The translations under genes were made by a program, and so were the position numbers. This document shows positions 42,341 to 60,283 of a DNA stretch of 64,000 nt, piece by piece. Position 1 is the stretch's first letter, and each line of letters opens with the position of its first letter. The notes beneath the pieces are model-generated. The model was not told the origin of the DNA. It was given only the letters and a program-made list of their open reading frames with translations, and made no database searches. Source of the DNA: a virus (taxonomy: Duplodnaviria; Caudoviricetes); IMG/VR virus record IMGVR_UViG_3300021256_000056, positions 1-64,000 of that record; one strand, written 5' to 3'.

Positions 42341-42347
42341 AAAATTG

Positions 42348-42689: not shown

Positions 42690-42694
42690 TTTTG

Positions 42695-42769: not shown

Positions 42770-42777
42770 ATTTGTTG

Positions 42778-42880: not shown

Positions 42881-42886
42881 CATTTG

Positions 42887-43010
42887 TTGCGGGTGAGGGA
42901 GTCGAACCCCCGTCTTTTCGTTATGGGTGAAATTACGATGTAAGTTGCCGCAAGATTTCCATGCGAAAACCTTTTTTGCTTTTACATGCTAACCATTGCA
43001 CTAACCCGCA
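42887..43010 (-). tRNA. tRNA-Met(CAT)-like with a variant helix insert (GCGGCAA) before the anticodon arm
   Basis: TGCGGGT/ACCCGCA; GGTTTTC-GCAT-GGAAATC-TTGCGGCAA; loop CCCATAA. Confidence 0.65.
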
Positions 43011-43018
43011 ATATTGTG

Positions 43019-43421: not shown

Positions 43422-43430
43422 ATGTTTTTG

Positions 43431-43503
43431 TACCCGATACAGGACTCAAACCCATACTCTGGGAGCCGTATTCCCAAGTTCTATTCAGTTAAACTAATCG
43501 GGC
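43431..43503 (-). tRNA. tRNA-Arg(ACG)
   Basis: TGGGA-ATACGGC-TCCCA. Confidence 0.85.
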
Positions 43504-43645
43504 TTTTTATTTTATTTTCATTTTCTCTATATTCCTTTTTTCTATATCTTCTTACCGAAGAATCATTCCTGCTTCCAAAATTTTCTGTCATTGCATGGCA
43601 ATTTGGACATAAAACTTCTATGTTTTCTTCTGTTACATTTGTTTA
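43494..43645 (-). pseudogene. HNH endonuclease C-terminal remnant
   Basis: translates TNVTEENIEVLCPNCHAMTENFGSRN; N-terminus missing. Confidence 0.8.
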
Positions 43646-43676
43646 TTAATAAATAATTAGATAAGAAAGATTTGAG

Positions 43677-43750
43677 AGCCCTCAGTCGGAGTCGAACCAA
43701 CACTTCATCCATACCACAGATGCGTACTCAGCCTTTAATACGATGAGGGC
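43677..43750 (-). tRNA. tRNA-Thr(GGT)
   Basis: CATCT-GTGGTAT-GGATG. Confidence 0.85.
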
Positions 43751-43855
43751 AAATCGCCAGGTGAAGCTAACCTGGCCCCCGTGAACTACCAGCCAGCCCT
43801 GCACCACGGGTGTTGATATGAGTACTGGTTGCATATCAACTTACAAGCTTACTTG

Positions 43856-43930
43856 TGCTCCCGATGGGACTCGAACCCATAACCCACTGTTTAAGAGACA
43901 GTTGCGCTCAACCAATTGCGCCACGAGAGC
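43856..43930 (-). tRNA. tRNA-Lys(CTT)
   Basis: ACTGT-CTCTTAA-ACAGT. Confidence 0.93.
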
Positions 43931-43940
43931 AGTTATTATG

Positions 43941-44012
43941 TAGCGGATAGGAGAGTCGAACTCCTCTCTCAAGATTGAGAATCTTACGTCCTAACCGATA
44001 GACTAATCCGCC
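43941..44012 (-). tRNA. tRNA-Glu(CTC)
   Basis: loop TTCTCAA; near-duplicate of Glu(TTC) at 47243. Confidence 0.9.
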
Positions 44013-44214
44013 ATTATCATATTACACAATGTTACATGTTTTATAAAAAATAAAGCATTGCGGATTTCCGTAGTCACCGCAATCGTTCTCCTCCTGCTAC
44101 CGTATACGACAGGCTAAGGCGAACTATAAGAACTTACCTATATTCGAACCTTTTCCTCTTAATCCACTTTATAAGAGTATGCTATAGGGTTCCCCACCTT
44201 GGTACTTTGATTTG

Positions 44215-44371
44215 TCGCGCATCTTGGAATCGAACCAAGTTCCTCTGGGGTTAGCAGCCCAGCGAGTTTTGTGTCTCCGCAGACTTGCAATCTACAATTA
44301 AGCGTCGTTGCAACTCAACTTAATCTGAATGTAGTATCCGCTTCTGTGCGTCTCCAACACTCTCATACGCG
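44215..44371 (-). ncRNA. initiator-like tRNA body with ~80-nt D-loop insertion and 8-nt anticodon loop
   Basis: CGCGTAT/ATGCGCG; CTGGG-CTGCTAAC-CCCAG; T arm intact. Confidence 0.6.
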
Positions 44372-44505
44372 GACAAGGCAGCGTGTATGCATCACCTTCT
44401 GACCTTGTAGAACGGACTTATATACATACCGTAACATTTTCGTAGTATGTAATTTCATCTGTTTTGTGTCTCCGACGAGGCTCGAACTCGTGACCCCCAC
44501 ATTAA

Positions 44506-45341
44506 CCTACCCAATATAGTTGCCTATACCATCTTACGATGTTTGAGTTTGGACCATTTCTTATCCATGCCACTTCGTGGTTTAGGTGGTGGTGTATGGC
44601 CTCTACACATTTATGCAAAAAAGCAATTTAGCCCGACGTTTTCCCAGGGGGATGTTCGTCGAATTAGCCACCATTCACGACAAGGGTTTCCCCTCGTGTG
44701 CTCCTTTCTTAGATTCACGTAAACATGAAATGCATAACCCGCTTTTAGTTTCCCTATGAAGCGGTTTTCCACATTTTTTGCACACGTGTTTGTACGTGTG
44801 GGTGTGTGTGGTTGTTTTAACCCCCTTCATATTTTTCTTTCCAGCGTAACTATCTGTTTGTGAATGGCAATTAGGACACAAAATCACTAGATTGTCGAGT
44901 TCATTATTAAAATGGTCTCCATCTTTATGATGAACTTGCAACGTTATGCTTTTACCATGCCACTCAGAAATTCCGCATTCTGGATTTTCGCACTTATATT
45001 CTTTCAGCCCCAATGAAATTAGTTTTTTCATTAATTCCGAAGATTTTATAAGTTTGTCTTTAACAAAAAAATCCTCTTTGTCTAGACCGTTGTGATTTTT
45101 ATTTCCGATGTTCGATTTTTGTCCAGTGAAATGTGAGGTATCTAGGTCGTATTCTTTCACGTATTTGTAAAACGTTCTATAATTACCACCAACAGGTTTC
45201 CATCCCACAGCACGACAAAAATCAGCAACACTAAAAACACGTTTACATATCTCTATTGCCTCTTCTTTACCAATTACATTTTTTGTCATAATAACACTTT
45301 TATAATAAATAGTGTTTAATTGGTAAAAGTAAGAAGATTTG
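44506..45341 (-). mobile_element. group I intron (IC3-like) with HNH ORF
   Basis: P/Q/R/S-like AATTCGACGAA, GTCGGGCTAA, GTGTAGAGGCC, AAGAAATGGTCC; terminal G after GGTAG. Confidence 0.85.
44675..45289 (-). CDS. intron-encoded HNH homing endonuclease
   Basis: LQVHHKDGDHFNNELDNLVILCPNCHS. Confidence 0.92.
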   Translation of the reverse strand: MTKNVIGKEEAIEICKRVFSVADFCRAVGWKPVGGNYRTFYKYVKEYDLDTSHFTGQKSNIGNKNHNGLDKEDFFVKDKLIKSSELMKKLISLGLKEYKCENPECGISEWHGKSITLQVHHKDGDHFNNELDNLVILCPNCHSQTDSYAGKKNMKGVKTTTHTHTYKHVCKKCGKPLHRETKSGLCISCLRESKKGAHEGKPLS

Positions 45342-45399
45342 AAGTGTGGTGCTCTACCAACTGAGCTACGGAGACTTTCCTTAAATTACCATAAAATTG

Positions 45400-45475
45400 T
45401 TGCGCAGGACGGGCTCGAACCGACGACTTCCAGGATATGAATCTGGTGCTCTACAACCAACTGAGCTACTGCGCA
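45400..45475 (-). tRNA. tRNA-Met(CAT)
   Basis: loop TTCATAT. Confidence 0.85.
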
Positions 45476-45483
45476 ATATTTTG

Positions 45484-45556
45484 CGGAGACGGGCGGAGTC
45501 GAACCACCGACGCGGGGCTCTTCAGGCCCCCGCTCTACCAACTGAGCTACGTCTCC
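45484..45556 (-). tRNA. tRNA-Phe(GAA)
   Basis: GGGGC-CTGAAGA-GCCCC. Confidence 0.93.
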
Positions 45557-45662
45557 AAAAAAAAGGTAAAATCTTCGAAGATTGCTGCAGCGGAAGTCCC
45601 CGAGTCGAACGGTGGTTACCTGGTGCCCCTTGCATACAATACTGCAACAAATTTTACCTTTG

Positions 45663-45738
45663 TGGGTGTCCTGAGACTCGAACTCAGAAACCTCTTGTGT
45701 ATCAGACAAGTGCTCTCAACCAATTGAGCTAGGCACCC
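45663..45738 (-). tRNA. tRNA-Ile(GAT)
   Basis: CTTGT-CTGATAC-ACAAG. Confidence 0.92.
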
Positions 45739-45748
45739 AGAAATTTTG

Positions 45749-46466
45749 TGGGACAGGAGGGACTCGAACCCTCACCCTCCTTAGAGGACTGGTTCCTCGT
45801 ACCACTATGGCTTTCGCCACCAAAACAACTTCGAACTTGCGGGTTGGATTTTCAAGGCTTGTACACCCCCAGGTTGTCTTGTTTGTGGTCTGGACTGTAT
45901 CTTAACCATATTGAAATCTAGCTAGTAAACATCCTTATACTTATAGTCTCGTAGTTTAATGTGGGTCACGCGACCACCCCTAGCTCATATAAGCATGTTA
46001 TTTCAACTTAGGCTCCTCCTGTATCTCGTCTCTACACACTGTCTATTATTCTATATCTGCGGTCCCTTGTTCTCAGGCTATATTCATTACTGAAGTATAG
46101 TCTTGCAGTATAGATTTTAACATTGGCTCGGCATTAGCATATTATTCCTATTGGGGTTTTACAAGTTTCGCTTATAGTTTTATTCCGATATTCACGGTGT
46201 CCCACAAAACCAATATTTGAATAACTTAGCTTTCACCGAATTAGGAAGGTTCTACATAACGGGTTTCCCCGCGTCCACAGGCTACTCTCCCGTTTGGGAT
46301 TGTTTACCTTATCTATCACGCTTCGCAGCGTCCTGTGGTATGCACTCAAGTTAAACGGGCGCCTATCCGCATACAGAGTGTCTCAGTCTGTAATCTCCAA
46401 GTATAGGTTATCAGTATAAGCCCGTTGTTCATAAGACCAGCGCGTCTACCATTCCGCCACTGTCCC
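45749..46466 (-). tRNA. tRNA-Leu(TAG) split by a group I intron
   Basis: exons CTGGT-CTT | AGGA-ACCAG. Confidence 0.9.
45798..46432 (-). mobile_element. group I intron (IC3-like), no recognisable ORF
   Basis: AATTCGGTGAA, AATGCCGAGCC, GTGTAGAGACG, AAGATACAGTCC; ends GGTACG. Confidence 0.9.
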
Positions 46467-46605
46467 AAAATTAGATAAGGGTGTATAATGCTGCCCTTGC
46501 TATATTGTGTGGCAACCCTTAAATGAGATTTTCCAAATACCTTTGTCTGCCATATTCTCAGGTGCTCATTACTGTAGCATTGATTATGTATATGAAGGTT
46601 ACCAC

Positions 46606-46691
46606 TGGTGCGGCAGGTGAGACTCGAACTCACACGGGATTGCTCCCACCACCCCCTCAAAGTGGCGCGTCTACCATTCCGCCACTGCCGC
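46606..46691 (-). tRNA. tRNA-Leu(GAG)
   Basis: CCACT-TTGAGGG-GGTGG; CCA encoded. Confidence 0.92.
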
Positions 46692-46857
46692 ATAAATATA
46701 TTGTTTTTAAATGGCCCTGGAATCTGTATTGACCACTAAGGGGGTAATCCTCCATCTACAGAATCTGTACCATCAGGTTTATCCCATTGGTTCCCTAAGA
46801 CCCATTCTTTTTCTCGGTGCGTGGTGACACCTCAAACCGTGAATATATACCTAGTTG

Positions 46858-46930
46858 TGGAGGATACGAGACTCGGACTCGTGACCCCCTGCTTGCAAAG
46901 CAGGTGCTCTACCGACTGAGCTAATCCCCC
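46858..46930 (-). tRNA. tRNA-Ala(TGC)
   Basis: CCTGC-TTTGCAA-GCAGG; G3:U70. Confidence 0.93.
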
Positions 46931-47242
46931 TTCATGGTCCTCTTTTAATCGCTATTCATTTAGGGAGCAGGAAGGACCAGTCCTATGACGTGTTAGCCTC
47001 AAACGCCATTCTAAGAGGTTCCTCAAAAATGCACTGCAGTATATGGTGTCCACCATTGCCCCTAATCGCCACCGCTTTCGGAGGGGTTTTGATACCATAG
47101 CATCATCGGAGAAATAAACGGGTTACTTAGTTATCGCTTGGCGCATAGACGCCTCAAACTTGCCTGTTGGCCACCCTTCGTGAGGTACAGAATAACTTAC
47201 TGTTTCTATGCCTTCAGTTACTGCCTCACCCTCACCCGTTCG

Positions 47243-47314
47243 TAGCGGATAGGAGAGTCGGACTCCTCTCTCAAGAATGAAAATCTTGCGTCCTAACCGA
47301 TAGACTAATCCGCC
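47243..47314 (-). tRNA. tRNA-Glu(TTC)
   Basis: CAAGA-TTTTCAT-TCTTG. Confidence 0.9.
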
Positions 47315-47321
47315 ATAAATT

Positions 47322-47452
47322 AAGAGCATAACGGTGTTTCGAACCACCGTTAATTGTTACCAGCGTGCGTTTCCTCTAATACACCAACCGAGTTTATTGT
47401 TTGCTCTGGGACCGTGGCCTTTAGTCCATTATCGAGCCCTCTGGTATCTCTT
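47322..47452 (-). ncRNA. unknown ~135-nt tRNA-trailer RNA, copy 1
   Basis: AAGAGA-TACCAG...GCACG-CTGGTA-ACAA-T-loop hairpin-CTCTT. Confidence 0.65.
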
Positions 47453-47453
47453 G

Positions 47454-47519
47454 TGCGTAAACATGGAGTCGAACCACGTTATTTCTAGGATTGCATTGCC
47501 TCTATATGCTATTTTACGC
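47454..47519 (-). ncRNA. tRNA-like RNA lacking a paired anticodon arm
   Basis: GCGTAAA/TTTACGC acceptor; D and T arms present. Confidence 0.6.
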
Positions 47520-47523
47520 AAAT

Positions 47524-47664
47524 AAGAGCATTATGAAGTCTCGAGCCTTCATAAATTGTTACTTAGCGTGCTCGTCCATCTTTACACTATTCCCGTTAAG
47601 AGTCCTTCCTTTTCACGTTGCCTAGAACTTTTCCGAAAAGAGAACTCACCTCTAAGTATCTCTT
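47524..47664 (-). ncRNA. unknown ~135-nt tRNA-trailer RNA, copy 2
   Basis: AAGAGA-TACTTAG...GCACG-CTAAGTA-ACAA-hairpin-CTCTT. Confidence 0.65.
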
Positions 47665-47665
47665 G

Positions 47666-47748
47666 TGGGCAGGGAGGGATTCGAACCCCCGAAGCCGTGA
47701 GGCAGCAGATTTACAGTCTGCCCGTTTTGACCGCTTACCTACCTACCC
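47666..47748 (-). tRNA. tRNA-Tyr(GTA)
   Basis: GCAGA-CTGTAAA-TCTGC, long variable arm. Confidence 0.92.
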
Positions 47749-47880
47749 ATAAAAAAACTTAAGCCACTCGCGTCCCACAGGTCTGTTCTCGCTTTTATTA
47801 AGAGGTGCACACGAGATTACTCTCCCTCCTTTAAAGTAAGTCGCCCTCCTAAGCCTTGTCCGCTTAAGTTAAAAAACAAC

Positions 47881-47947
47881 GGGAAACATTTTTACGTATG
47901 TTCAGAAAGAAAGTCGGAATTTTAGTAAATTTTGCTGTTAGTTTCCC
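47881..47947 (-). ncRNA. ACAGCAA-helix RNA with Glu(TTC)-like loop
   Basis: GGGAAAC-TAACAGCAA...TTCCGA-CTTTCTT-TCTGAA...GTTTCCC. Confidence 0.7.
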
Positions 47948-47952
47948 TTTAG

Positions 47953-48074
47953 AGCTGATGCAAGGAATCGAACCTCGGTCTGCGGCTTGGAATGCATTTC
48001 TTGATTTTTGCTGTCCGTAACCTTGTCAGAATACCTTATTTGAAAACGCTGTGCTACCACTACACCACATCAGC
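47953..48074 (-). tRNA. tRNA-Gly(TCC) interrupted by a 51-nt ACAGCAA insert (47996-48046) at position 29/30
   Basis: removing the insert restores GCG|GC-ATTCCAA-GCCGC. Confidence 0.83.
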
Positions 48075-48254
48075 TTATATTAAAATCTCCTGTTTGCCTC
48101 GGGTGGACGCGTCGGGCTGAATCCGCCCATCACCCTTAACACCTCGCCATTATGCTATGGCTTTATTCCATACTGCATAAAGGTTTTCCTACCACGTGGG
48201 TCACATAATGTCAACCTGATTGTTGGTTATGTAGCTCCCTCAGAGATAATAAAT

Positions 48255-48332
48255 TGGCGGTGCGTACGGGATTCGAACCCGTGAACTCCACCGTGACAGG
48301 GTGGCATGATAGACCAGCTTCACCAACGCACC
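48255..48332 (-). tRNA. tRNA-Asp(GTC)
   Basis: CCACC-CTGTCAC-GGTGG; CCA encoded. Confidence 0.94.
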
Positions 48333-49020
48333 GTATGCTTTTTCGGTTTAACATTAACCGTATTACTGGCGGTTTTGGTATCGCACTTTTCCGCCTTAGT
48401 GCGTCCGAATTTCACGGAAGCCTTACTATCGCGAATAATGTACTTAAGGCTACTACCAAGGTGACTTGTGGAGCAGCCCTTCGCGATTATGATGCCACAA
48501 TGCACTTGGTTTATAATTTAAGGTTACCTAAAGTAGATGTGCCTTGGATTCGCACCTCTCACGGAGACTTTTTACACCAAAACCACTATAGTCAATTTTG
48601 GATATTAAGTTACTCAGCCTTTGACCCGATATACCATTTCACACCACTGCAGCTGGCGGCGATTTTGTACCTGGCCATACTCATTGTCACTTTAGTTTTT
48701 CGCGCTCGGGCTCCCTGCCCGTGTTGGCGTTGCAACCTCTGACTACTCTCACGGTTAAAACTGTGGGGGGTTCTTGGGAGCAAACACAAAGTGCTTTGGG
48801 AAGCATAGCCTATTGGCTTACTTTAACTCCACACAGGGGTAGTCCTCCCCTGTCCCAAATACATGTTTAGCCCTTGGTTTTCAGGCTTGTATTCTCGTTT
48901 TTTCGAGGTAAATTCGCCCCTTTTTGGTACCCAACGCATTGGAGAGTCGAACTCCGCTGCTTGCATATTCGAAAACACGCCCAAGGGGACCCTACTACCG
49001 TTCGGGATTACTGCTAAATT

Positions 49021-49156
49021 AAGAGCCATAGCATATTCGAATTCCGCTATGTTGTTACCGAATGTGCGAACGTCTCTTGCATTTCACACCGCTGCTAATC
49101 GTACTCCATTGCTATACGCGTAATAGCAACTTAAGGAGCCCTTTCCAGTATCTCTT
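49021..49156 (-). ncRNA. unknown ~135-nt tRNA-trailer RNA, copy 3
   Basis: AAGAGA-TACTGG...GCACAT-TCGGTA-ACAA-TTCGAAT hairpin-CTCTT. Confidence 0.6.
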
Positions 49157-49157
49157 G

Positions 49158-49232
49158 TGGGAGTGGAGGGATTCGAACCCCCGACATCTACCTTGTAAGG
49201 GTAGCGCTCTAAACCAGCTGAGCTACGCTCCC
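49158..49232 (-). tRNA. tRNA-Val(TAC)
   Basis: CTACC-CTTACAA-GGTAG. Confidence 0.93.
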
Positions 49233-49564
49233 GTTTCTCACCTAAGACTAACGCGCTAATCTGTCATTCGCAATGCACTAGGTGTATAACTTTTTTTATA
49301 CGTGCAGTTCTAACCCCCTTCGTGACCCCTCAGTGCTACTATAGTCGCCCTATATTTGGATTACTGACGATACCCTACACCTACTCATCACGCCATTTAA
49401 CCGTGGCTCTCTCGCATTGTTCCAATCTACGAGAGGCCCCCCCACGGTGAGGCCGTTAGTCGGATTTGACTTGAGCAAGAAGTCTGAATTGAACAGCAAG
49501 TTCCGTCCTTACGTAGCGAACAAGGGACGGACGTCTCCCGAACCTGGGTATCTTGCTAAAAAAT

Positions 49565-49716
49565 GTGTAACCAGAAATCAGAAATGTTTTACTCTACCTA
49601 CTGAGCTACATGGGAAGAATACCGTAACTCCCACGGAGGGACTCGAACCCTCGTCCTTAGTTTTACAGACTTACAAACAATTAATGAACTTGCTGTAAGA
49701 TTTCTTCACGTTACAC
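49565..49716 (-). ncRNA. ACAGCAA-helix RNA enclosing a circularly permuted tRNA-Tyr(GTA)-like module
   Basis: order: helix, ACAGCAA, CTGTAAA loop, T arm, acceptor hairpin, D arm, helix. Confidence 0.8.
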
Positions 49717-49732
49717 GGTGATGGTATTTTTG

Positions 49733-49806
49733 CGGGAAGAGAGGGGCTCGAACCCTCGACCTAAGGATTAACAGTCCTTTGCTACCACCAGCTGAGCTAC
49801 CTTCCC
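49733..49806 (-). tRNA. tRNA-Asn(GTT)
   Basis: AAGGA-CTGTTAA-TCCTT; G73. Confidence 0.9.
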
Positions 49807-50123
49807 GAAATTACAGGCACGTAAACGAAATGCCCTCAGACTTCCCAATGGTTTATAGATTAAAGACCTAAAACCATTATGCGGCTCCTTCACACCTACG
49901 AAAAACAGTCTTTGTCAACTACCACGTGTTATAGTATTGTAGGCAAGTTATTCTAACGTCAAACTGCCATGACGATGGTTGCTATTACGCCACACCAAAA
50001 ATAGCGGGTCTGTTTACTAAACAAGAAATTGACCGCAGGTTGGATTTACACCAACTTACTCCCAGTAAAATCCAGGGCTTCAAATTACAAAAGCCTCGCA
50101 CGGTTGATTCCTTGTAGAAATAC

Positions 50124-50235
50124 GGGAAGCGTTTTACGTCCAACGGACGGGGGCGGACTTGAACCGCCGAACCTCTCAAGTTCTGATTTTCAGTCGGAAT
50201 TGTTAAACCTTTGTTGAGATTGCTGTGTGCTTCCC
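50124..50235 (-). ncRNA. ACAGCAA-helix RNA with Phe(GAA) loop, T arm and closed acceptor-like hairpin
   Basis: GGGAAGC-ACACAGCAA...CTGAAAA...GGCGG TTCAAGT CCGCC...CGTCC-GTT-GGACG...GCTTCCC. Confidence 0.78.
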
Positions 50236-50240
50236 TGTTG

Positions 50241-50325
50241 CAGGCGCTGGAGGATTCGAACCCCCGAGGAATTTAATCCTGCTGGTTTTGGAGACCAGTG
50301 CCTTCGACCGCTCGGCCAAGCGTCT
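50241..50325 (-). tRNA. tRNA-Trp(CCA) with long variable arm
   Basis: CTGGT-CTCCAAA-ACCAG; A1:U72, G73; 16-nt variable region. Confidence 0.85.
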
Positions 50326-51028
50326 GTATATATTCCATTAATCCTTTTTTATCGAATGGTAGTCCGTAATGCTTAAACCATTTTCTTATAGCATTATCCG
50401 ACACTCCAAAAGACTTTCCGACTTGTAAAAAACTTCTTTTAACTAAAAAAAGATTAATTAAAGTTTCTTTTGATGGGTGATTTCTTTCCCATGCGCATTC
50501 TCGCGCTTCTATCCAATCTTCTTTGTTTGTGTGTCTTTTCTTTACTATGGTTTTAGTAGTGGATTCGTATTTATTTGAATTTTTTCCTGCATAAGTATCC
50601 GTTTGTGAATGACAATTTGGGCATAATAACATGAGATTTTCAATCCTATTATCGTCATGTATACCATTGATATGGTGGAGTTGTAATGATATCGGTTTAC
50701 CATTCCATTCGCAAATTCCACATTGTGGATTCTCACACTTATTTTCTTTTAAGCCACACTCAATTAGTCTTTTTTTTAGCCGACTTTTGTTTGTGTATAA
50801 ACTATGTTCAACTAGAATGTCATCCATGGGAATTTTTTCTCTGTAGCTTTTTGTCATTCGTTTATAAGAGAATCTTAATTCCAGCCCGAGTTCCTTTGCA
50901 AGCGCCCTTACCTCTTTATAATCTTCCCCGCCAACGTTTTCTATTCCGAGTCTATGACAAAGGTCCAACATATTAACACATTTGTCGTAATTTTCAATTA
51001 ACCTGTCTATCGCGTATTCTCGATTCAT
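50273..51028 (-). CDS. free-standing HNH homing endonuclease with C-terminal HTH
   Basis: LQLHHINGIHDDNRIENLMLLCPNCHS; FGVSDNAIRKW; ORF runs into tRNA-Trp. Confidence 0.92.
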   Translation of the reverse strand: MNREYAIDRLIENYDKCVNMLDLCHRLGIENVGGEDYKEVRALAKELGLELRFSYKRMTKSYREKIPMDDILVEHSLYTNKSRLKKRLIECGLKENKCENPQCGICEWNGKPISLQLHHINGIHDDNRIENLMLLCPNCHSQTDTYAGKNSNKYESTTKTIVKKRHTNKEDWIEARECAWERNHPSKETLINLFLVKRSFLQVGKSFGVSDNAIRKWFKHYGLPFDKKGLMEYIQTLGRAVEGTGLQNQQD

Positions 51029-51216
51029 AATATTCTTTTTATTATAAATAGTATGAAAAGAGAAAAATCGAACCTTTTTGGAAATTTTTATTTAGTTCGA
51101 ATATATAATGAAAAATGAATTTTCCTCTAAGGGGAGTAGTCTAACTCCCCAGTGTGTTTTATGACCTTTTCAGCAAACCAATGTAAAAACCCAATAACTA
51201 TGGTTGTAAAAATTTC

Positions 51217-51281
51217 GGAAATCTGTTTTTCAGAATATTAGATTAAAAGTCTAGTCCTTGATAAATTGCTGTAAGATTTCC
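51217..51281 (-). ncRNA. ACAGCAA-helix RNA with Lys(TTT) anticodon stem-loop
   Basis: GGAAATCT-TACAGCAA...TAGA-CTTTTAA-TCTA...AGATTTCC. Confidence 0.8.
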
Positions 51282-51283
51282 TC

Positions 51284-51374
51284 TGGCGGAGAGGCTGGGA
51301 TTCGAACCCAGGGGACGCTCAACACGCCCAACGGTTTTCAAGACCGCCGCTATCGACCACTCAGCCACCTCTCC
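51284..51374 (-). tRNA. tRNA-Ser(TGA)
   Basis: GCGGT-CTTGAAA-ACCGT; CCA encoded. Confidence 0.93.
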
Positions 51375-51383
51375 ATTAAATTT

Positions 51384-51453
51384 GAACTGCAAAAGGATTC
51401 GAACCTTTACCCGTGGACTATGCCCGCGTGTCCTGTCCATTAGACGATACAAT
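51384..51453 (-). pseudogene. degenerate tRNA
   Basis: D and T arms intact; loop GCATAGT lacks U33. Confidence 0.55.
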
Positions 51454-51525
51454 TTTTTATCGCAGTAAAGAGGCCACCACTGATTTAACACGGCATCAGC
51501 AATGACAACCACTACGCCACGTGTG

Positions 51526-51604
51526 CTGGGGTATGGTGATTCGAACACCAATTATTCTCACGCCCTTAGGGCTTGAGGCGGTACTACCGTTGTACTACAC
51601 CCCA
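51526..51604 (-). ncRNA. Gln-type tRNA body with extended anticodon arm (CCCTAAG apex)
   Basis: U1:A72, G73; CTCAAGCCCTAAGGGCGTGAG. Confidence 0.65.
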
Positions 51605-51725
51605 GTTTATGTCTCTCCAAAGTCACGCCACTTTTGGGTATTTATATCGCGGGGGCAGGTGTCGCCCTCGCTTATGGTAATTTATCTCAATATTGTCAAA
51701 GAACGTGTGTTCCGAAGAACTCTGG

Positions 51726-51778
51726 TGCAAATATATATGTAATTTTTCAAACTACAAAATATTTTTGCATTTTTTTTT
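51726..51778 (-). promoter_or_regulatory. duplicated promoter of the RNA island (second copy ~56856-56906)
   Basis: about 50-bp near-identical repeat with TTTG (-33) and TATATTTG (-7), followed by boxA-like GTTCTTTGA. Confidence 0.75.
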
Positions 51779-51780
51779 TG

Positions 51781-51857
51781 TCTAGGAGATGAGACTCGAA
51801 CTCACATTATCCTGGCTCCTGACCAGGCAACCTCACATCCAATTGGTTTACTCCTAG
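51781..51857 (-). tRNA. tRNA-Pro(AGG)
   Basis: CCTGG-TCAGGAG-CCAGG; C1:G72, A73; C33. Confidence 0.75.
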
Positions 51858-51872
51858 TTATATTTCAATTTG

Positions 51873-51956
51873 TGGCCCCGACGGGACTCGAACCCGTAAC
51901 CCTCGGTTTAAAAGACCGATGCGCTCGCTTTCGCTATCCATTTGCGCCACGAGGCC
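51873..51956 (-). tRNA. tRNA-Lys(TTT) with 10-nt D-loop expansion
   Basis: TCGGT-CTTTTAA-ACCGA; D loop carries GCGAAAGCGA. Confidence 0.82.
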
Positions 51957-52052
51957 GTTCCATTTTTCTCGGAAGCCTCGCATCACAATCGGGGCTTCAC
52001 ATTAATATTTCTGTTTTATACGTTTCATGTTTCTATTTTATTTCTTTTCTTG

Positions 52053-52140
52053 CTGGCCAGGAAGGATTCGAACCTCCAACCTTTGACACATCTAAAGCCT
52101 TTAGGGCAGTGCCTGCTCTCCCATTTGGAGCTACTAGCCA
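52053..52140 (-). ncRNA. Gln-type tRNA body with extended anticodon arm (CCCTAAA)
   Basis: TGGCTAG/CTGGCCA-G; GGCACTGCCCTAAAGGCTTTAGATGTGTC. Confidence 0.65.
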
Positions 52141-52184
52141 GTTCTTTTGACAGTTTTTGGCATGCCACTGACAAACCGACAGGT

Positions 52185-52258
52185 ACTGGGTGACGGAATC
52201 GAACCGACATCAGATGCTTGAAAGGCACCTCGCCTCAACCATTAGCAGATTAACCCAG
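52185..52258 (-). tRNA. divergent tRNA-Glu(TTC)-like gene
   Basis: AGGTGC-CTTTCAA-GCATCT; imperfect acceptor stem. Confidence 0.55.
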
Positions 52259-52266
52259 CATGTATT

Positions 52267-52530
52267 TTAATGAACTAAATGTTTAAATTTTTCCAATTTC
52301 AATTTCGCTTCTTCTCTATCTTCCTCGGTCAAAAGTCTATTTGTACTCCCCACGTGCCACTTATCACACTTTGAACATTTATAAGCCACCATCTTATGTA
52401 ATATGTTTTCACAAGTATTAAGGAACCTGGCCGTTGTCAGAGCATCCATCTCAGTATCGTAGCTCTTTTTGGGGACCAATTTGTCTCCCTCAATCTTATA
52501 ATGGCTTCTTATTGTTCTTTTTTCATCCAT
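52267..52530 (-). CDS. small Zn-ribbon protein
   Basis: AYKCSKCDKWHVG; preceded by a sigma54-like promoter. Confidence 0.7.
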   Translation of the reverse strand: MDEKRTIRSHYKIEGDKLVPKKSYDTEMDALTTARFLNTCENILHKMVAYKCSKCDKWHVGSTNRLLTEEDREEAKLKLEKFKHLVH

Positions 52531-52544
52531 ACGAAATTCATAAT

Positions 52545-52560
52545 GCAAATTTCGTGCCAA
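52545..52560 (-). promoter_or_regulatory. sigma54 (-24/-12) promoter
   Basis: TTGGCACGAAATTTGC. Confidence 0.7.
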
Positions 52561-52984
52561 AGTTTTCTTTTTCTAAAAATTTCTTCAAAAAAACCTCCAG
52601 AGAGTTTTGGGGAACATCTTTGGAGGCGTGGAATATAGTGTCGGTCTAAACCGTGTGGTGCTATGTATTATGCATCTGTTCCCATTATTCCTCCTCCTAG
52701 TCCTTTAAATGGCCATGCGCCGAGGCGTTCCTCTGACTTTCTAATGCTGACATATAGGCATGGGCAATCAAGGCTGCTCTTGTGGGAGCCTCCCATGACG
52801 TTTGTATTATTGCTCAGCATAACCATTTTGTACCTATTTTTCAATTATAAATATATGATAAAATCGAAAAAACTAAAATTCTGTGCAAATATATATGCTT
52901 TTTTTGTAAAAATCAACAAAAAACAAAAAAAAAGAGCGAATTTTTTAGATTCGCTCAATACGTTTATCACTGTTTATTCAAATC

Positions 52985-53323
52985 TTACCTACCAGCAGCG
53001 AGTATGTATGAGGCAATCATTTTTCCCCAAGCATCGTCTCTAGGGATTGAGAATTCACCACCGTTATCCCAATCGTACCCTGTTGGTGCCCACATAATTG
53101 TTATGTGGTCGTAACTTGGCATAAGACGGTACATCTTTCCAGACTTTCCCCTTACCTCAAAATCTTGGTGTCCTTCTTTTGATACACGTTCTCCGTAGAT
53201 GTCGTCCATTATTTCTTTTGAAGGAATGGGGTTATCTGTCCACTCATTTAGCACTTTTTTAACGCTTTCTTTAACTATTTTACGAAGCTGTGATTCGTTG
53301 AGATTTATAGTATTCTTTTTCAT
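52985..53323 (-). CDS. hypothetical protein with large-phage N-terminal LNESQLRKIVKESV motif
   Basis: motif, upstream ACTATTTAT. Confidence 0.7.
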   Translation of the reverse strand: MKKNTINLNESQLRKIVKESVKKVLNEWTDNPIPSKEIMDDIYGERVSKEGHQDFEVRGKSGKMYRLMPSYDHITIMWAPTGYDWDNGGEFSIPRDDAWGKMIASYILAAGR

Positions 53324-53395
53324 GTGCTTTTAATTTTCTTATAAATAGTTTGTTGAAACAAAAAAGCCTCAGATTTATCTGAGGCTTATAGGAAC

Positions 53396-53462
53396 GGAAA
53401 ACTTTTTGTTAAAATTCGAAGTTTGGAATCGGATTTGGTCTAATATTTGCTGTCGGTTTTCC
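53396..53462 (-). ncRNA. ACAGCAA-helix RNA with Trp(CCA)-like loop
   Basis: GGAAAAC-CGACAGCAA...TTCCAAA...GTTTTCC. Confidence 0.68.
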
Positions 53463-53476
53463 TATTTTTGTCTGTT

Positions 53477-53794
53477 TTAGTCTTCAAAGTATTCCTTGAT
53501 AAGTGCCTTAATGGTTTCAAGTTCTACTTCCCTGTCGCGGAGTTCGAGAGCGAGATTGATACGTTTGCGTACCCAGTCCTTGGTGTTGAGGTTTTCTCCG
53601 ACGATGAGGCTCTGTGTGCTTCTCACTGAGAGGTCTTCCATGGAGACAATCTCATTGTTGATGGTGCGGATGCACTTTTCGACTGAACGCTTTTCATCTT
53701 CAAAGACGTCCTTGGTCTCTTCGGTGACATTCTGTGCCCTTTTCTGAATAAGGTTGTCACCAGTGTTTGTTAAGATTTGAGTAAATTTTCCCAT
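53477..53794 (-). CDS. coiled-coil hypothetical protein
   Basis: 105 aa ORF. Confidence 0.65.
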   Translation of the reverse strand: MGKFTQILTNTGDNLIQKRAQNVTEETKDVFEDEKRSVEKCIRTINNEIVSMEDLSVRSTQSLIVGENLNTKDWVRKRINLALELRDREVELETIKALIKEYFED

Positions 53795-53795
53795 A

Positions 53796-54137
53796 TTATT
53801 TGCTGTTTATTACGTGTCTATGCTGGAGTTTATAAAGTCCTGGAACGATTTCGATGCTTGCGTGCGATTCTGATTCCCAGTCTTCGATTGTGTTATCAAT
53901 CTTCTCGATTATGCTTCCTCCGTCGTGTCGCAAAACTTCGTGCATGATTGCAATCTCACGTTTAGTTTCTAATTCCCGATGGACTTTCTCTGGGAGGGCT
54001 GCAGCAAGTGTTGCGTAGTCATTAGAGCTAAGGCTGACCTGCACTGTTACGTTATGGTCTCTCGCATCGCTTTCGCAAGTCACAAGGACGTTATCTCCGT
54101 AATCGTTAGTCGCAGTTAAGTTATTAATATTAGTCAT
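53796..54137 (-). CDS. hypothetical protein
   Basis: 113 aa ORF. Confidence 0.6.
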   Translation of the reverse strand: MTNINNLTATNDYGDNVLVTCESDARDHNVTVQVSLSSNDYATLAAALPEKVHRELETKREIAIMHEVLRHDGGSIIEKIDNTIEDWESESHASIEIVPGLYKLQHRHVINSK

Positions 54138-54154
54138 GTTTTTCGTAAATTTTG

Positions 54155-54226
54155 TGCTCCATACAGGAATCGAACCCGTCTAAGAACGTTTTAGGGACGC
54201 CCGCTCGGCCACTGAGCCAATGGAGC
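54155..54226 (-). tRNA. amber suppressor-like tRNA (CTA)
   Basis: GCTCCAT/ATGGAGC-A; GGCGT-CCCTAAA-ACGTT; C33. Confidence 0.75.
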
Positions 54227-54234
54227 AGAAAGAC

Positions 54235-54295
54235 AGGAAACATTAAAATCAACATTATCAGTGTTTATTTGACGAAAGGTTGCTGTGTGTTTCCT
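54235..54295 (-). ncRNA. ACAGCAA-helix RNA with Ile(GAT) anticodon stem-loop
   Basis: AGGAAACA-CACAGCAA...AACA-CTGATAA-TGTT...TGTTTCCT. Confidence 0.78.
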
Positions 54296-54311
54296 TATCT
54301 TAATGTTTCGT

Positions 54312-54602
54312 TTATTGAACCAACTTAAGTCCTTTAAACATTTCACCCGAATCTTCAACCGCAATTGCCGTAAGGCTATTGTTTAAATCGGGCTCGTAGA
54401 ACGCAGAATAAGTCTTATGTTTGTCCCTCAATCTCTGTCTCCATTTCTCAACGTCGGCGTAGAGATATATAAGGTACTCATTATTCCATTGTTGCTGTGG
54501 GTTATCCAAAAGATATTGTGCAACTGCGTGCCCACCTTGAACGCAGGCGTAAACGGGGTTGAGTCGTTTACTCACCAGCACGTACAATCTCTTCGCAGAC
54601 AT
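54312..54602 (-). CDS. peptidyl-tRNA hydrolase PTH2-like protein
   Basis: LYVLVSKRL...VQGGHAV...FYEPDLNNSLTAIA. Confidence 0.7.
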   Translation of the reverse strand: MSAKRLYVLVSKRLNPVYACVQGGHAVAQYLLDNPQQQWNNEYLIYLYADVEKWRQRLRDKHKTYSAFYEPDLNNSLTAIAVEDSGEMFKGLKLVQ

Positions 54603-55023
54603 CGGTATACACTTTAATCGTTTCTTCCCCCCAGTATGTTTTACAATTTTTTTCCTCATAGACTTTTAACTGATAACCATAGGTTTTCAGATAACTATTA
54701 ATCTCATCAGAATAAAGGAACAAGGGGTGTTTTCCTTCGAGGTGGTCAGCCAAGCGATATCCAGTTTGGCGGTAGTAGTCTTCTTTGTTAAGAGGCTTCG
54801 CCTTATTTTCTATCTGCTCAAACTTTCTTCCTCTCATTAACCCATATGCCGCATACATTGCCCTTAGGGTGTCTTTATTACTAGAAACCTTCCAGCAGGC
54901 TTCATACGGTTGCATTGTCCTTTCGGTCTTTAGGTTAACAGTTTTTCTTTGTTCTTTTGCTTTTCTTTGTTCCACCTCCAAGGCGGCGATTTCCTTACGG
55001 AATTCAATAATTTCTTGTTTCAT
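54568..55023 (-). CDS. hypothetical protein
   Basis: LRAMYAAYGLMRGRKFEQIE; directly upstream of the PTH2-like gene. Confidence 0.7.
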   Translation of the reverse strand: MKQEIIEFRKEIAALEVEQRKAKEQRKTVNLKTERTMQPYEACWKVSSNKDTLRAMYAAYGLMRGRKFEQIENKAKPLNKEDYYRQTGYRLADHLEGKHPLFLYSDEINSYLKTYGYQLKVYEEKNCKTYWGEETIKVYTDVCEEIVRAGE

Positions 55024-55093
55024 AATGTTGTTTGGTTTTAATCATTTTATTTTTGGCTCTCGCCGACAAATTCCACTTTCAAATCAAACACCA

Positions 55094-55126
55094 TTAAGGT
55101 GGAACTGGATTAACCTAGTGTTTCAT
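55094..55126 (-). promoter_or_regulatory. leader uORF MKH-amber-VNPVPP-ochre
   Basis: ATG AAA CAC TAG GTT AAT CCA GTT CCA CCT TAA with A-rich leader. Confidence 0.55.
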
Positions 55127-55158
55127 AACGATAATTGTTAAGTTTGTTATTAAAAATA

Positions 55159-55468
55159 AAAAGAACACTACGGTAGGATTACTGATTACCTACAAATACT
55201 CTACAAGCGCGTTATTCAGTCACACCCAAGAAGGTTAGCTACGCCTACTTTTAAAAGGGTGAGGGGAATGCTTACCCCCAAACGGATACAGCCATCAGTC
55301 ACTGTAACTACGATTTGTCCGTTTCTTACGTCACTCTCGGTTGGCCAACCGAGGCTACTTCAACCTTACGCTTCGTGTTGCCCTCTAACCGCCTCCTGAA
55401 CTTTTCAGTCCAGGCTAACGTACCTTATGGGCAGGCTACCCATTGTTCGGTCACAAAGTGTTCTTTTT
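55159..55468 (-). ncRNA. candidate ~300-nt structured RNA
   Basis: terminal pairing AAAAGAACACT/AGTGTTCTTTT, GC-rich hairpins, own promoter, no credible ORF. Confidence 0.55.
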
Positions 55469-55567
55469 ATGATGGGTCGCCCCGCCATAAATTTTCTTTT
55501 TTTTAAAGAGCTTTTACAAAAATACGACCTTTTAATTAAAAAAGCAAGGTCTTTTAATAAAAAAAAC

Positions 55568-55625
55568 GGAAAACTTTTTTGTGACGCAGTATTATCAGTA
55601 CTTCCAAAATTGCTGTAAGTTTTCC
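55568..55625 (-). ncRNA. ACAGCAA-helix RNA with Ile(GAT) anticodon stem-loop
   Basis: GGAAAACT-TACAGCAA...AGTA-CTGATAA-TACT...AGTTTTCC. Confidence 0.8.
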
Positions 55626-55646
55626 TGCCTTGCCAGGTCGAGTTTG

Positions 55647-55827
55647 TTGCGGGGGCAGGAATCGAACCTGCGACCTTCAGCTTAGGATTGGTAGGAGGAA
55701 TCGAACCTCCGTTTTCACGTGCCTTACTAGGGCTAGATGTCCTGTACCACTAGACGACACCAATCTGGTTCGTTACAGTGAACCACGCTGTATTGAGGCT
55801 GACGAGCTACCGCTGCTCCACCCCGCA
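55647..55827 (-). tRNA. fMet-like tRNA(CAT) whose anticodon contains a 109-nt insert holding a second tRNA-like gene
   Basis: TCAGC-CTCA|insert 55685-55793|TAA-GCTGA. Confidence 0.8.
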
Positions 55828-55982
55828 ATATATTTCAAAATAAAGACTGCCCTTAGATTTAAACTTACCTACGCACAGTGAGGTACTAAGGCGGTTCGTT
55901 CAGGTTGCCCGATTTCGTCTAGAATGTTACGGGCCCTCGTGCGTGTCAAACGGGAATTGGCCGTCGCCTTCCACAGTCTTTG

Positions 55983-56090
55983 TTGCGATGGTAGGATTCG
56001 GACCTACGCTCTGAAACGATGTTTCATATCCTTGGCGCCCCAGGAAACACGGGAGTTGCCCCGCTGCTCTGACCACTGAGCTACACCGCA
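55983..56090 (-). ncRNA. tRNA-like RNA with three hairpins replacing the anticodon/variable arm
   Basis: intact acceptor, D and T arms. Confidence 0.65.
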
Positions 56091-56129
56091 AAGTAAATAT
56101 ATGATAAAAGTTAAAGGTTTCTTAAAAAA

Positions 56130-56830
56130 ATCAGCGTTGTCAAAAGCGCGTGGCCGCTACGCTGATTATAATGTCTAATTAAGCACTATTTTGCCACATT
56201 GGCGTCCATAACCTCCCCTGTAGTGTGATGGACAAACATCACAAAGTCACAGTAACTCAAACAGGTTCCCTCTTGCTACGGCTTACTCTCTCCTTTACCG
56301 CGGGGTCAACGCCATGTCCGCGAGGATTCAGCCTTTACTCATGCACACTCCCGCATCCTACTGATAAACTGCATTACAGTCTCGCTGAGCGGGCCCAGCA
56401 CTAACCAACTACAGAGCACGTGCACATCTCTCATGTTGGTCTGGGAAATAACTCCTCCGATTTCCCGTTGTCAGGTTTCCATCCTAATAAACCCCGCCTA
56501 CTCTATGGGGCAACGAAATACGGCCAGTTACGCATTCATTCCAGAATCCGAGAAGCATTTACGATACACTTCTAAAAACGTTTGAATCATTCGAGCCGAA
56601 AAACTTATTACTTATAGGTTTTATTATATCCTATCGCCCTATAAGATAAAATTCAGCACTTAAAGATAGGATTGCGCCTTAATTCCCCTGTGCAATAATA
56701 CGAGGGTTTAATCCCAACTCGGACTTTTCAAAATGTCTATCCAAGTAGCACTTTTGTTTTCGGGCGTACGAATCGACGTTTTACGAGCATCTTCTGCTCA
56801 CCTTACTTTTCCGACTGCGCGGATTGGATT
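56130..56830 (-). ncRNA. candidate large (~700 nt) structured ncRNA
   Basis: no ORF of 60 aa or more in any frame, hairpin-rich, directly downstream of promoter plus boxA. Confidence 0.55.
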
Positions 56831-56907
56831 TATCTTTCAAAGAACTTTTCTGGATGCAAATATATATGTAATTTTTTAAACTACAAAATATTTTTGCATT
56901 TTTTTTG

Positions 56908-56978
56908 TTGTGGCGCCGAGATTCGAACTCAGAACGCAAGTGCCAAAAACTTGTGTGTTACCATTACACCACGCCACA
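56908..56978 (-). tRNA. tRNA-Gln(TTG)
   Basis: CAAGT-TTTTGGC-ACTTG. Confidence 0.9.
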
Positions 56979-58608: not shown

Positions 58609-58674
58609 TTATTATAAATAGGCAAATAAAAAGAAAAACCACCATTTACACTTGTGTGTATTTGGTGGTTTTTG

Positions 58675-59289
58675 TGGCCCAGGCGGGACTCGAACCCGCA
58701 CGGCCCTTGCGGGCCAGCAGATTTTCTTACCACTATAGCTTTCACTACCTAAACAACTTCGAACAATCGGGTTGGATTTTCAAGGCTTTATACCCCCAGG
58801 TTGTATAGTTTGTGGTCTGGACTGTATCTTAACCATATTGAAATCTTGCAAGTGTCATACGCATAGTAAACTATAAACATTATAGGTGGAGTCTCTCAGG
58901 TTCCGCTCTTCCTATAAGAGGCTATAGTCTGTTGCCGTAATTCTATTTCAACTTAGGCTCCTCCTGTATCTCGTCTCTACACACATACGTTGCGGGGATG
59001 TCCCGAAAACAAGGCTACTTGCTGCCCTCTGCTACCTTATTAGGGTAGATAGCGTTGCAATTACTTGTTCGTACTTGGCTCGGTATTACCAACAGCGTTA
59101 ATTTTCTCCACTCCATAGAATTCAACTCATTGGCAGTAATCTTCCAATGCTTCACATCTACTTCAACGCTTCCTTGAATTTTAACCTGCTAAGGTTTCAC
59201 CGAATTAGGGAGGTTCTACATCTCTTGTTTCCAAGAGCGCACTCAAATTTTCATTAAGTCTGCCGCGTATACCATTCCGCCACTAGGCC
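58675..59289 (-). tRNA. tRNA-Leu(TAA) split by a group I intron
   Basis: exons GCAGA-CTT | AAAA-TCTGC. Confidence 0.92.
58726..59255 (-). mobile_element. group I intron (IC3-like), no recognisable ORF
   Basis: same P/Q/R/S core as 45798-46432; U34/A35 site as in cyanobacterial and plastid trnL(UAA). Confidence 0.9.
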
Positions 59290-59512
59290 ATAATTTAGTC
59301 TCATATTTAGAGGTATGGTAATTAGCTTTACGACCTGCGTTCATACTCGGTGGGGCGACCATGCCCACCTTTCTTACTGGCGACCCGCATCATTTCATCG
59401 GAGGTCAACATTGTGAATCAGCATTACCTGGTCTTCAACATTAGTATCTTCTTTCCGTCATTCGGAATCTTTTGCCAATCTCTAAACGTTTATTTTCAAA
59501 GAACTTCTTTTG

Positions 59513-60250
59513 TGGTCCCTGTAGGACTTGAACCTACGACCATCTGATTCGTACCACCATAGCTTTTACTACCAAAATTGATTACATGAACAAATCCTAA
59601 GTACCGTATCAGCCTTAAGCCGATTATGCCTACATTATGACCGTCCTACTATAACGGTGTAATCAGTCCTAACATTGCTTCATCCTATTAGGGCACTTTA
59701 ATTTTGTTTGTGGTCTGGACTGTCTCTTAACCATATTGAAATCTTGCAAGTAAGTATTGATGTTTCGAGCATCTACCTCGCTCTTATCGAGCGGATATTC
59801 CATTACCTTCGGAAAATACAATTTCAACTTAGGCTCCTCCTGTATCTCGTCTCTACACACTGTCTAAACAAATAATTGAAATGTAGCTTAGATGTTCTAT
59901 TCTGTAATTCAAACATCAACGACTTTTCATTACATTTCCAACTAACATCGTACCTACAGACGCGATGAATTCATTTGTTTTAACATTGGCTCGGTATTAG
60001 CATATTTGGACTGTCTTCTTACACATAGATTCTAAACGACTGCTATCATTACTGAAATTCAGTTAACTATGTACTACTGTTGACAATACACCAACTAATT
60101 TAGACGATTATCCGATATATTCCTGTACATCCAAACTATAGCTTTTACCGAATTAGGGAGGTTCTACATCCAAGGTTTCCCTTGGTGCACACAATTTCTT
60201 TTCAAAGAACTAATGAGTCAGGTGCTCTAACCAAACTGAGCTAAGGGACC
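59513..60250 (-). tRNA. tRNA-Ile2/Met(CAT) split by a group I intron
   Basis: exons CCTGA-CTCAT | AA-TCAGA. Confidence 0.87.
59550..60212 (-). mobile_element. group I intron (IC3-like) at position 36/37
   Basis: shared core AAGAGACAGTCCAGACCACAAAC and GTGTAGAGACGAGATACAGG; ends GGTACG. Confidence 0.88.
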
Positions 60251-60267
60251 GTTATTGGTGATATCTA

Positions 60268-60283
60268 GCAAAAATCGTGCCAA
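60268..60283 (-). promoter_or_regulatory. sigma54 (-24/-12) promoter at the head of the RNA island
   Basis: TTGGCACGATTTTTGC, 18 nt upstream of the first tRNA. Confidence 0.75.

Follow-up and report, generated by a model that had tools for sequence, protein, structure and literature searches.

A candidate tRNA-shaped intron in a phage tRNA-Met gene and the structural rule that it shares with other huge-phage inserts

The tRNA genes of Lak megaphages carry what have been called 'enigmatic introns' without an Rfam hit, one of which 'may encode a tRNA' (Devoto et al. 2019, PMC6784885). These introns are about 80-115 nt long and reside in the anticodon loops of tRNAs from huge phages in which TAG is recoded (PMC6784885). 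The remark was repeated for recoded jumbo phages in a 2026 survey, which reported introns in the tRNAs of 77% of such phages, and so the class seems to be common (PMC13037316). Both accounts come without a structure rule, a splice-site rule or a mechanism (PMC6784885, PMC13037316).

The case described here lies in a 64,000-nucleotide stretch of DNA, hereafter 'the window', which is part of G000, an IMG/VR virus record with a length of 195 kb and a completeness of about 53%. A tRNA-Met gene in the window is interrupted in its anticodon loop by 109 nt, composed of a 5' module, a tRNA-like structure (TLS) and a single terminal C. We know of no tRNA splicing in bacteria and phages besides that of self-splicing group I introns.

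When inspected by eye, all four Lak introns printed in Table S6 (PMC6784885) obey the same rule that is given below for the window insert and its relatives, namely a tRNA-like stack of 8 + 5 bp followed by a single C. Their 5' hairpin begins with ACAG... in three cases and with ACAAUC... in the Thr intron, and an A-rich linker comes next (Table S6, PMC6784885). The window insert resembles them in its anticodon-loop site, its 5' hairpin starting with AC, its 8 + 5 stack and its single C. Unlike the Lak hairpin, its module includes a nested second helix that would create a pseudoknot, and it comes from a different phage lineage (40% G+C in the window phage versus about 26% in the Lak lineage). 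Judged by its sequence features, which include a restored loop, an 8/8 and 5/5 paired stack plus C, and a start of the form AU ACAG...CUGU, we assign the window insert to the Lak-type introns built from a module and a TLS. It is a member of a class that has already been reported and is mechanistically unexplained, and what is new here is the set of explicit structural rules. The published Lak 'Tyr(GTA)' gene also reads better as Asn(GUU), with the loop CUGU^UAA, G73 and a short variable loop.

The split tRNA-Met gene and its surroundings

First-pass annotation of the window had described a tRNA body split at CTCA/TAA by 109 nt. This arrangement is borne out on the minus strand by ARAGORN in intron mode, which calls c[55646,55827] as a tRNA gene with a 109-nt intron, and by uninterrupted homologues. 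When the 5' half served as the query in a viral-contig scan, 63 viral loci were recovered, and in 60 of these TAAGCTG(A/G) is directly next, making a plain tRNA-Met(CAU). Because 60/63 loci with the same 5' half run straight into this sequence, we read the outer gene as a tRNA-Met split at CUCA/UAA (35/36). ARAGORN sets the junction elsewhere and thereby reads the gene as Arg(CCU); this reading is ruled out by the uninterrupted homologues together with the C74 rule described below, and the structural rules thus correct an automatic call from Arg(CCU) to Met(CAU). The features of the locus are as follows.

55647..55827, minus strand: outer tRNA-Met(CAU) gene with an initiator-like body, split at 35/36 (ARAGORN in intron mode, uninterrupted homologues)
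55794..55827, minus strand: 5' exon, ending ...UCAGC CUCA (A35) (segmentation script)
55647..55684, minus strand: 3' exon, starting UAA GCUGA (U36) (segmentation script)
55685..55793, minus strand: 109-nt candidate intron, made of the 5' module, the TLS and a single C (ARAGORN, segmentation script)
55766..55793, minus strand: 5' module, AU plus a candidate H-type pseudoknot, 28 nt (covariation, 25/28 identity to the G001 copy)
55788-55791 with 55775-55778, minus strand: module helix S1, ACAG with CUGU (covaries across the family)
55780-55785 with 55766-55771, minus strand: module helix S2, UGGUUC with GAACCA (covaries; in the minimum-free-energy fold)
55685..55765, minus strand: inner TLS, with acceptor, D arm, odd anticodon region, T arm and C74 (Rfam tRNA, 38.6 bits)
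55758-55765 with 55686-55693, minus strand: 8-bp acceptor of the TLS, including G-1:C73 (8/8 paired)
55694-55710, minus strand: T arm of the TLS (T stem 5/5 paired)
55685, minus strand: C74 tail of the TLS, a single C (layout script)
54568-55023, minus strand: P0001, a conserved neighbour of 151 aa

On the minus strand the 5' exon reads UGCGGGG UG GAGC AGCGGUA GCUC G UCAGC CUCA and the 3' exon reads UAA GCUGA AGGUC GCAGG UUCGAUU CCUGC CCCCGCA A. Removal of the insert at CUCA^UAA yields the 7-nt loop CUCAUAA, which has U33 and, in position 37, a purine, and ARAGORN calls the in-silico spliced gene tRNA-Met(cat). The earlier description of the body as fMet-like holds in part. The A11:U24 pair is present and is initiator-like, but two hallmarks of bacterial initiators are absent: the 1:72 pair is U1:A72 rather than a C1xA72 mismatch, and in the anticodon stem UCAGC/GCUGA only G30:C40 fits the pattern of three G:C pairs (29-31:39-41). 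The outer body is initiator-like and lacks the full set of initiator features. Further Met(CAU)-type tRNAs are present in the window, and as a result the split gene might be dispensable.

All of the elements that had been noted in the insert are present, including ATACAGCG, the GGTTC/GAACC hairpin, the ATTGGTG/TACCAAT helix and G-1:C73. The insert opens with AUACAGCG and continues with the hairpin UGGUUC/GAACCA, which is also found in the minimum-free-energy fold of the insert. The inner tRNA-like fold, earlier described as having D and T arms and an odd GCCCTAG anticodon arm, is matched by the Rfam tRNA model at 55686-55764 (38.6 bits). It has the acceptor AUUGGUG/UACCAAU plus the additional G-1:C73 pair, a D arm and the T arm GGAGG UUCGAUU CCUCC, and its anticodon region is a non-canonical 27-nt stretch containing GCCCUAG. 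ARAGORN calls this fold Thr(AGU), with only GCC/GGC plus mismatches as the stem within the 27-nt region. The acceptor and T stem form a 13-bp stack (8 + 5) with one C beyond. The insert starts 28 nt before the 5' end of the inner fold and ends with N73-C74 followed by UAA, lacking CCA. As the first reading had held, there is no group I core: neither group I nor any other Rfam family apart from tRNA matched the insert region at E up to 10. The folding energy of the insert is unexceptional (z = -1.1).

A minus-strand tRNA array occupies 38-57 kb of the window (38047-56978), with 35 tRNAs and a tmRNA according to ARAGORN and 36 Rfam matches. One of its tRNAs is a CUA suppressor, and the tmRNA is indicative of a bacterial host. 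A conserved trio of P0001, P0002 and suppressor tRNA(CUA), located downstream of the split tRNA (54154-55023, minus strand), is found in both G000 and the related record G001; G004 has a weaker P0001 similarity, and the contigs L260-L263 carry a P0001 homologue and then a suppressor tRNA. P0001 has no match in Pfam, PHROG, PDB-sequence or Atlas searches, and its confident structural model (pLDDT 85.6) has no Foldseek match in the PDB. P0002 looks PTH2-like, which we treat as a lead only.

Other tRNA genes near the split gene and elsewhere in the window are also unusual. Adjoining it is an odd tRNA-like gene of 108 nt (55982-56090, minus strand; Rfam 44.7 bits) with about 50 nt in its anticodon region, a start of GCGGGGCAACUCCCG and a homologue at G001 13432-13545. 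Three tRNAs at 42101-42340 and 47952-48074 (minus strand) carry inserts of 44, 44 and 51 nt at 29/30, past the third anticodon-stem base, each consisting of a hairpin and then (U)A ACAGCA; relatives are found in G001 at 4345, 10715, 10835 and 12934, and this intron type differs from that of module plus TLS. Longer tRNA inserts of about 0.6-0.9 kb at 44440-46490 and 58650-60270 (minus strand) resemble group I introns at their ends (exon U, ...GGUACG) and gave no Rfam Intron_gpI match at the gathering score. Finally, the motif GGAAAYC-NN-ACAGCAA occurs at 55610-55625 and at about nine other minus-strand sites, lying 12-36 nt past tRNA 3' ends (30 nt in the case of the outer tRNA-Met) and in front of ORFs. 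The motif may serve in processing or as a promoter, and NN-ACAG is common to this motif and the intron start.

A family of inserts and its structural rule

Conservation in related phages had been suggested as a check on the locus, and it is evident: 14 further inserts of the same build occur in other huge-phage contigs, and the tRNAs concerned serve about ten amino acids. The resulting 15 members come from seven records, which are G000, G001, G004, G006 and the loci L261-L263. The closest counterpart is L047 (record G001), where the same Met gene has the same kind of insert. Module searches gave further inserts in G001 (Asn), in G004 (two tRNAs) and in G006/L255, and intron-mode ARAGORN runs over whole records contributed the Tyr and Pro inserts of G001 and the Leu insert of G004. 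P0001 has 114 homologues, and four of their contigs are L260-L263, giving seven more candidates. In L261, an uninterrupted tRNA-Met is found at about the same place in a conserved gene order (SprT-like gene, tRNA-Gln, tRNA-Met, P0001 homologue).

Other searches were less productive. The region had no BLAST match in the phage collection. The loose pattern GGTTCACTG..ACGAAC returned chance matches from viral contigs, apart from two possible hairpins in L126 and L144, and module scans of metagenomes and genome collections yielded mostly chance matches, the genuine ones being duplicates plus L093. An insertion of the IS200/IS605 type was ruled out, as the target sequences differ.

Comparison of the two Met copies reveals how the parts of the insert have changed. 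Between the window and G001, 25/28 positions of the module are identical, whereas the TLS helices retain only 4/8, 5/8 and 2/5 identical positions with all pairs kept. In addition, the outer T stem exhibits three fully compensatory pair changes.

We used a layout script that accepts a candidate only if the outer anticodon stem is paired, if an 8-bp helix, a 5-bp stem and a 7-nt loop come next and are followed by one C, and if the loop remnants on either side total 7 nt. A solution was obtained for 15/16 candidates; the exception, L262 4412-4591, has the module and no 7/8 TLS solution, and it was left out of the family. The outer anticodon stem is 5/5 paired in 15/15 members, the TLS acceptor is paired 8/8 in 14 members and 7/8 in one, with sequences that differ in nearly all, and every member has a T stem with at least 4/5 pairs and the tail C. 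Two statements summarize the rule, each of which holds for 15/15 members. On the 5' side, a short helix, AC(A/G)G : C(U/C)G(U), begins after the first 2-3 nt of the intron. On the 3' side, it ends one C past the 13-bp stack. The full rule was satisfied by 20 of 4500 shuffled inserts (0.44%), and the architecture of module plus TLS is thus far beyond chance.

The position of the split within the anticodon loop varies among members (33/34, 34/35, 35/36 and 36/37), and a 7-nt loop is restored every time. Because the split position varies, the presumed splice sites are set by the structure of the intron and not by the outer tRNA. In-silico splicing gives ordinary tRNAs according to ARAGORN in 15/15 members, with the identities Met (two), Asn (two), Tyr, Pro (two), Arg (four), Leu, Thr, Trp and Phe. 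By eye, features of the tRNA bodies agree with the predicted anticodons, such as C1:G72 in both Pro members and G73 in both Asn members, and the Tyr and Leu members have long variable arms.

The module begins with two lead-in nucleotides, mostly AU. Helix S1 occurs as ACAG:CUGU, CAG:CUG, CGG:CCG (a compensatory change), ACAAG:CUUGU and ACAGGAG:CUUCUGU. In the window and ten relatives, S2 is nested with S1 as an H-type pseudoknot, with covarying forms GGUUC/GAACC, AUGC/GCAU, AUCC/GGAU and AGUUC/GAACU. In the G001 Tyr member and three L263 members, S1 is a plain hairpin of 4-7 bp followed by an A-rich linker. In all 15 members, module and linker place 24-31 nt between the 5' splice site and the TLS, and the module is near-identical in G004, G006, G005 and L093.

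The window's inner fold is the sole TLS among the 15 that ARAGORN calls a tRNA; its G001 homologue and the 13 others are uncalled. The other 14 inner folds are tRNA-like minihelices in which 10-68 nt replace the D and anticodon arms, and 14/15 members contain a GG there. Given that 14/15 family members are not called, the inner fold may be a tRNA-like handle and not a decoding tRNA.

Several related sequences were encountered outside the family. A module of the form AUACAGAGUGGUUCACUGACGAAC is free-standing between tRNA genes in L073 6894-7040 (provirus G005) and L093 3026-3300, with a tRNA about 45 nt downstream in L073 and tRNA-like T arms after it in L093; neither is inside another tRNA. 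A 21-nt stretch at L065 2527-2547, in a phage that is complete at 46 kb, is identical to the S2 hairpin of the window (TGGTTCACTGTAACGAACCAG); it falls between genes in a structured region that has no tRNA close by. At the same CUCA/UAA site, the tRNA-Met of L035 (minus strand, near 649-700) has a 27-nt insert that is a plain hairpin. In the corresponding stretch of the conserved gene order in L260 (8015-8840), tRNA-Met is broken by an insert of about 750 nt with an HNH ORF. This insert starts with UU ACGG...CCG like the module, and it was not counted as a member, since it has no standard TLS end.

Removal of the insert and competing explanations

All of the plain tRNAs in the window (35/35) end with N73-C74, and only 5/35 have an encoded CCA; the spacer past C74 of the array tRNAs is mostly A-rich. 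The last base of the intron is C74 of the inner fold, and therefore the 3' splice site coincides with the place where every tRNA of this phage must be cut before CCA completion. We consider this coincidence to be the strongest hint to the mechanism.

With moderate confidence, we propose that the insert is a genuine tRNA-shaped intron of huge stop-codon-recoded phages, removed by one cut that is guided by the TLS and another that is guided by the module, and then by ligation. A tRNA 3'-end endonuclease, the same enzyme that serves the array tRNAs, would read the TLS and cut past C74. We envisage an enzyme of the RNase Z/BN type, probably supplied by the host; an RNase Z-type cut at C74 is assumed here, because the 13-bp stack is one pair longer than that of a standard tRNA. 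A second activity would read the module and cut 2-3 nt upstream of S1, and a separate cut by RNase P would split module and TLS apart. The outer tRNA fold would meanwhile hold the two halves until an RNA ligase seals them, giving a tRNA-Met with the predicted junction ...CAGCCUCA-UAAGCUGA.... If the two ends of the intron come together, a small bulge made of the C and the two lead-in nucleotides would separate the TLS acceptor from S1, and given this bulge the two cut sites may be close in space. The rules for the 5' site, the 3' site and the N73-C74 match predict exact cleavage products and mutants.

Candidates for the ligase are a phage enzyme of the Rnl2 type, as in the relative G006, or a host ligase. 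G006, itself a carrier of such inserts, encodes two RNA ligases of the PF09414 family together with an AAA_33 kinase. The first-pass annotation had invoked a phage RNA ligase, and this was not found: domain searches of the 195 kb of G000 (about 53% complete) detected no RtcB, Rnl1-type or Rnl2-type ligase. The same record (about 53% complete) has no EndA splicing endonuclease (PF01974), Lactamase_B_2 (RNase Z type), PolyA_pol (CCA enzyme) or AAA_33/Pnk. The available parts of G001 and G004, each at most 57% complete, likewise have no RtcB/Rnl1/Rnl2, RNase Z-type or CCA-adding enzyme. Because the records are about half complete or less, these absences are weak evidence.

The module might instead do the cutting itself, as a small self-cleaving or self-splicing RNA that acts on its own 5' edge while the TLS provides the scaffold. 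The conservation of the module is well above the needs of pairing (25/28 between diverged phages, and near-identity among G004, G006, G005 and L093), its pseudoknot topology is compact, and the cut site is at a constant 2-3 nt from S1, all of which would suit such an RNA. We nevertheless regard self-processing as unlikely, because the plain hairpin of 4-7 bp in some members provides hardly any conserved nucleotides from which to build a catalytic core, no Rfam ribozyme matched at E up to 10, no guide pairing of the intron to the variable exon ends could be seen by eye, and the 3' site is left unexplained.

A precise DNA insertion without target duplication would equally leave a restorable 7-nt loop, which counts against the splicing proposal. 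Perhaps, then, there is no splicing at all, and a selfish DNA element made of module and tRNA-like gene disables tRNAs at the anticodon loop, such that only the inner RNA is released and used. The free-standing modules and tRNAs between the tRNA genes of G005 and L093 fit this explanation, as do the other Met tRNAs in the window and the fact that exons are restorable after precise insertion. However, the outer exons remain intact with compensatory changes between diverged phages, and anticodon and body identity agree in every member. About a third of G001 tRNAs are interrupted (13/35 ARAGORN calls, some doubtful), with many amino acids hit, and intron-plus and intron-minus allele pairs exist (L261; PMC6784885 Fig. 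4). These observations make this explanation improbable.

Excision by RNase P and 3' processing, followed by ligation, had been suggested at the outset. Part of this suggestion survives in our proposal, in that end-processing enzymes plus a ligase offer the most plausible route, with the 3' site at N73-C74. The TLS does offer the acceptor, T arm and elbow that are read by RNase P and 3' enzymes. The 5' splice site, however, is out of reach for RNase P acting alone, because the module separates this site from the TLS: a cut 28 nt downstream of the 5' splice site would leave the module on the 5' half, and for this reason RNase P and 3' processing alone give no ligatable CUCA and UAA ends. One could suppose a cut by RNase P on the 5' side of the inner fold and 3' processing beyond it, with exonucleases trimming the module back to A35 and a ligase joining the ends. 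We find this quite unlikely, since 24-31 nt of module and linker intervene in 15/15 members, the structured module would block trimming, and nothing at the exon end, which lies anywhere between positions 33 and 36, would tell an exonuclease to stop.

Nothing beyond the odd arrangement would suggest an assembly chimera or a single recombination relic, both raised by the first-pass annotation. Both are refuted and have a negligible probability, because the same arrangement with covarying helices and compensatory changes is conserved in independent assemblies from other samples (L047/L085, L074/L101, L255 and L261-L263).

Comparison with known routes of tRNA cutting and joining

If the insert is indeed removed as an intron, then its removal can be compared with several established systems. 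The group I introns of bacterial and phage tRNAs share with the window insert the anticodon-loop site and a presence/absence polymorphism between related genomes. In contrast to these introns, the window insert is only 109 nt long, its exon ends in A and not U, its last base is C and not G, and it has no conserved core and no RF00028 match (E up to 10).

Archaeal and eukaryal bulge-helix-bulge introns, which are processed by a splicing endonuclease and RtcB or Trl1, are similar in that cutting and joining would depend on proteins and that sites extend beyond 37/38. The 3' end of the window intron pairs inside the TLS and not with the exon; held in the acceptor helix of the TLS, it is unavailable for the 4-bp exon-intron helix at the centre of such introns. 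No PF01974 endonuclease was found in G000, and, whereas bulge-helix-bulge systems are archaeal and eukaryal, the tmRNA in the window array points to a bacterial host.

Precedents for the individual steps exist elsewhere. In MALAT1/mascRNA and in mitochondrial tRNA punctuation, RNase P and RNase Z are drawn to a long transcript by a tRNA-shaped fold within it and so set the ends of the RNAs. The flanks stay separate in these cases, whereas those of the window insert must be ligated to make a working tRNA. Phage T4 Pnk and Rnl1 repair the anticodon-loop breaks made by PrrC, and, as in the sealing that we propose, an anticodon-loop nick is closed while the tRNA body holds the halves. The T4 reaction is damage repair, whereas the window case would be the removal of an encoded insert, and the G000 fragment has no Rnl1/Pnk.

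Beyond the proposal that the insert is an intron, we put forward more tentatively, and with some doubt, that the TLS borrows the tRNA 3'-end endonuclease of the cell, that the module either directs a new nuclease or is a tiny ribozyme, and that a repair ligase joins the halves, which would constitute a third, bacterial and phage-borne, route of tRNA splicing. If true, a protein-dependent route assembled from ordinary tRNA-trimming enzymes and a ligase would add a new branch to RNA processing.
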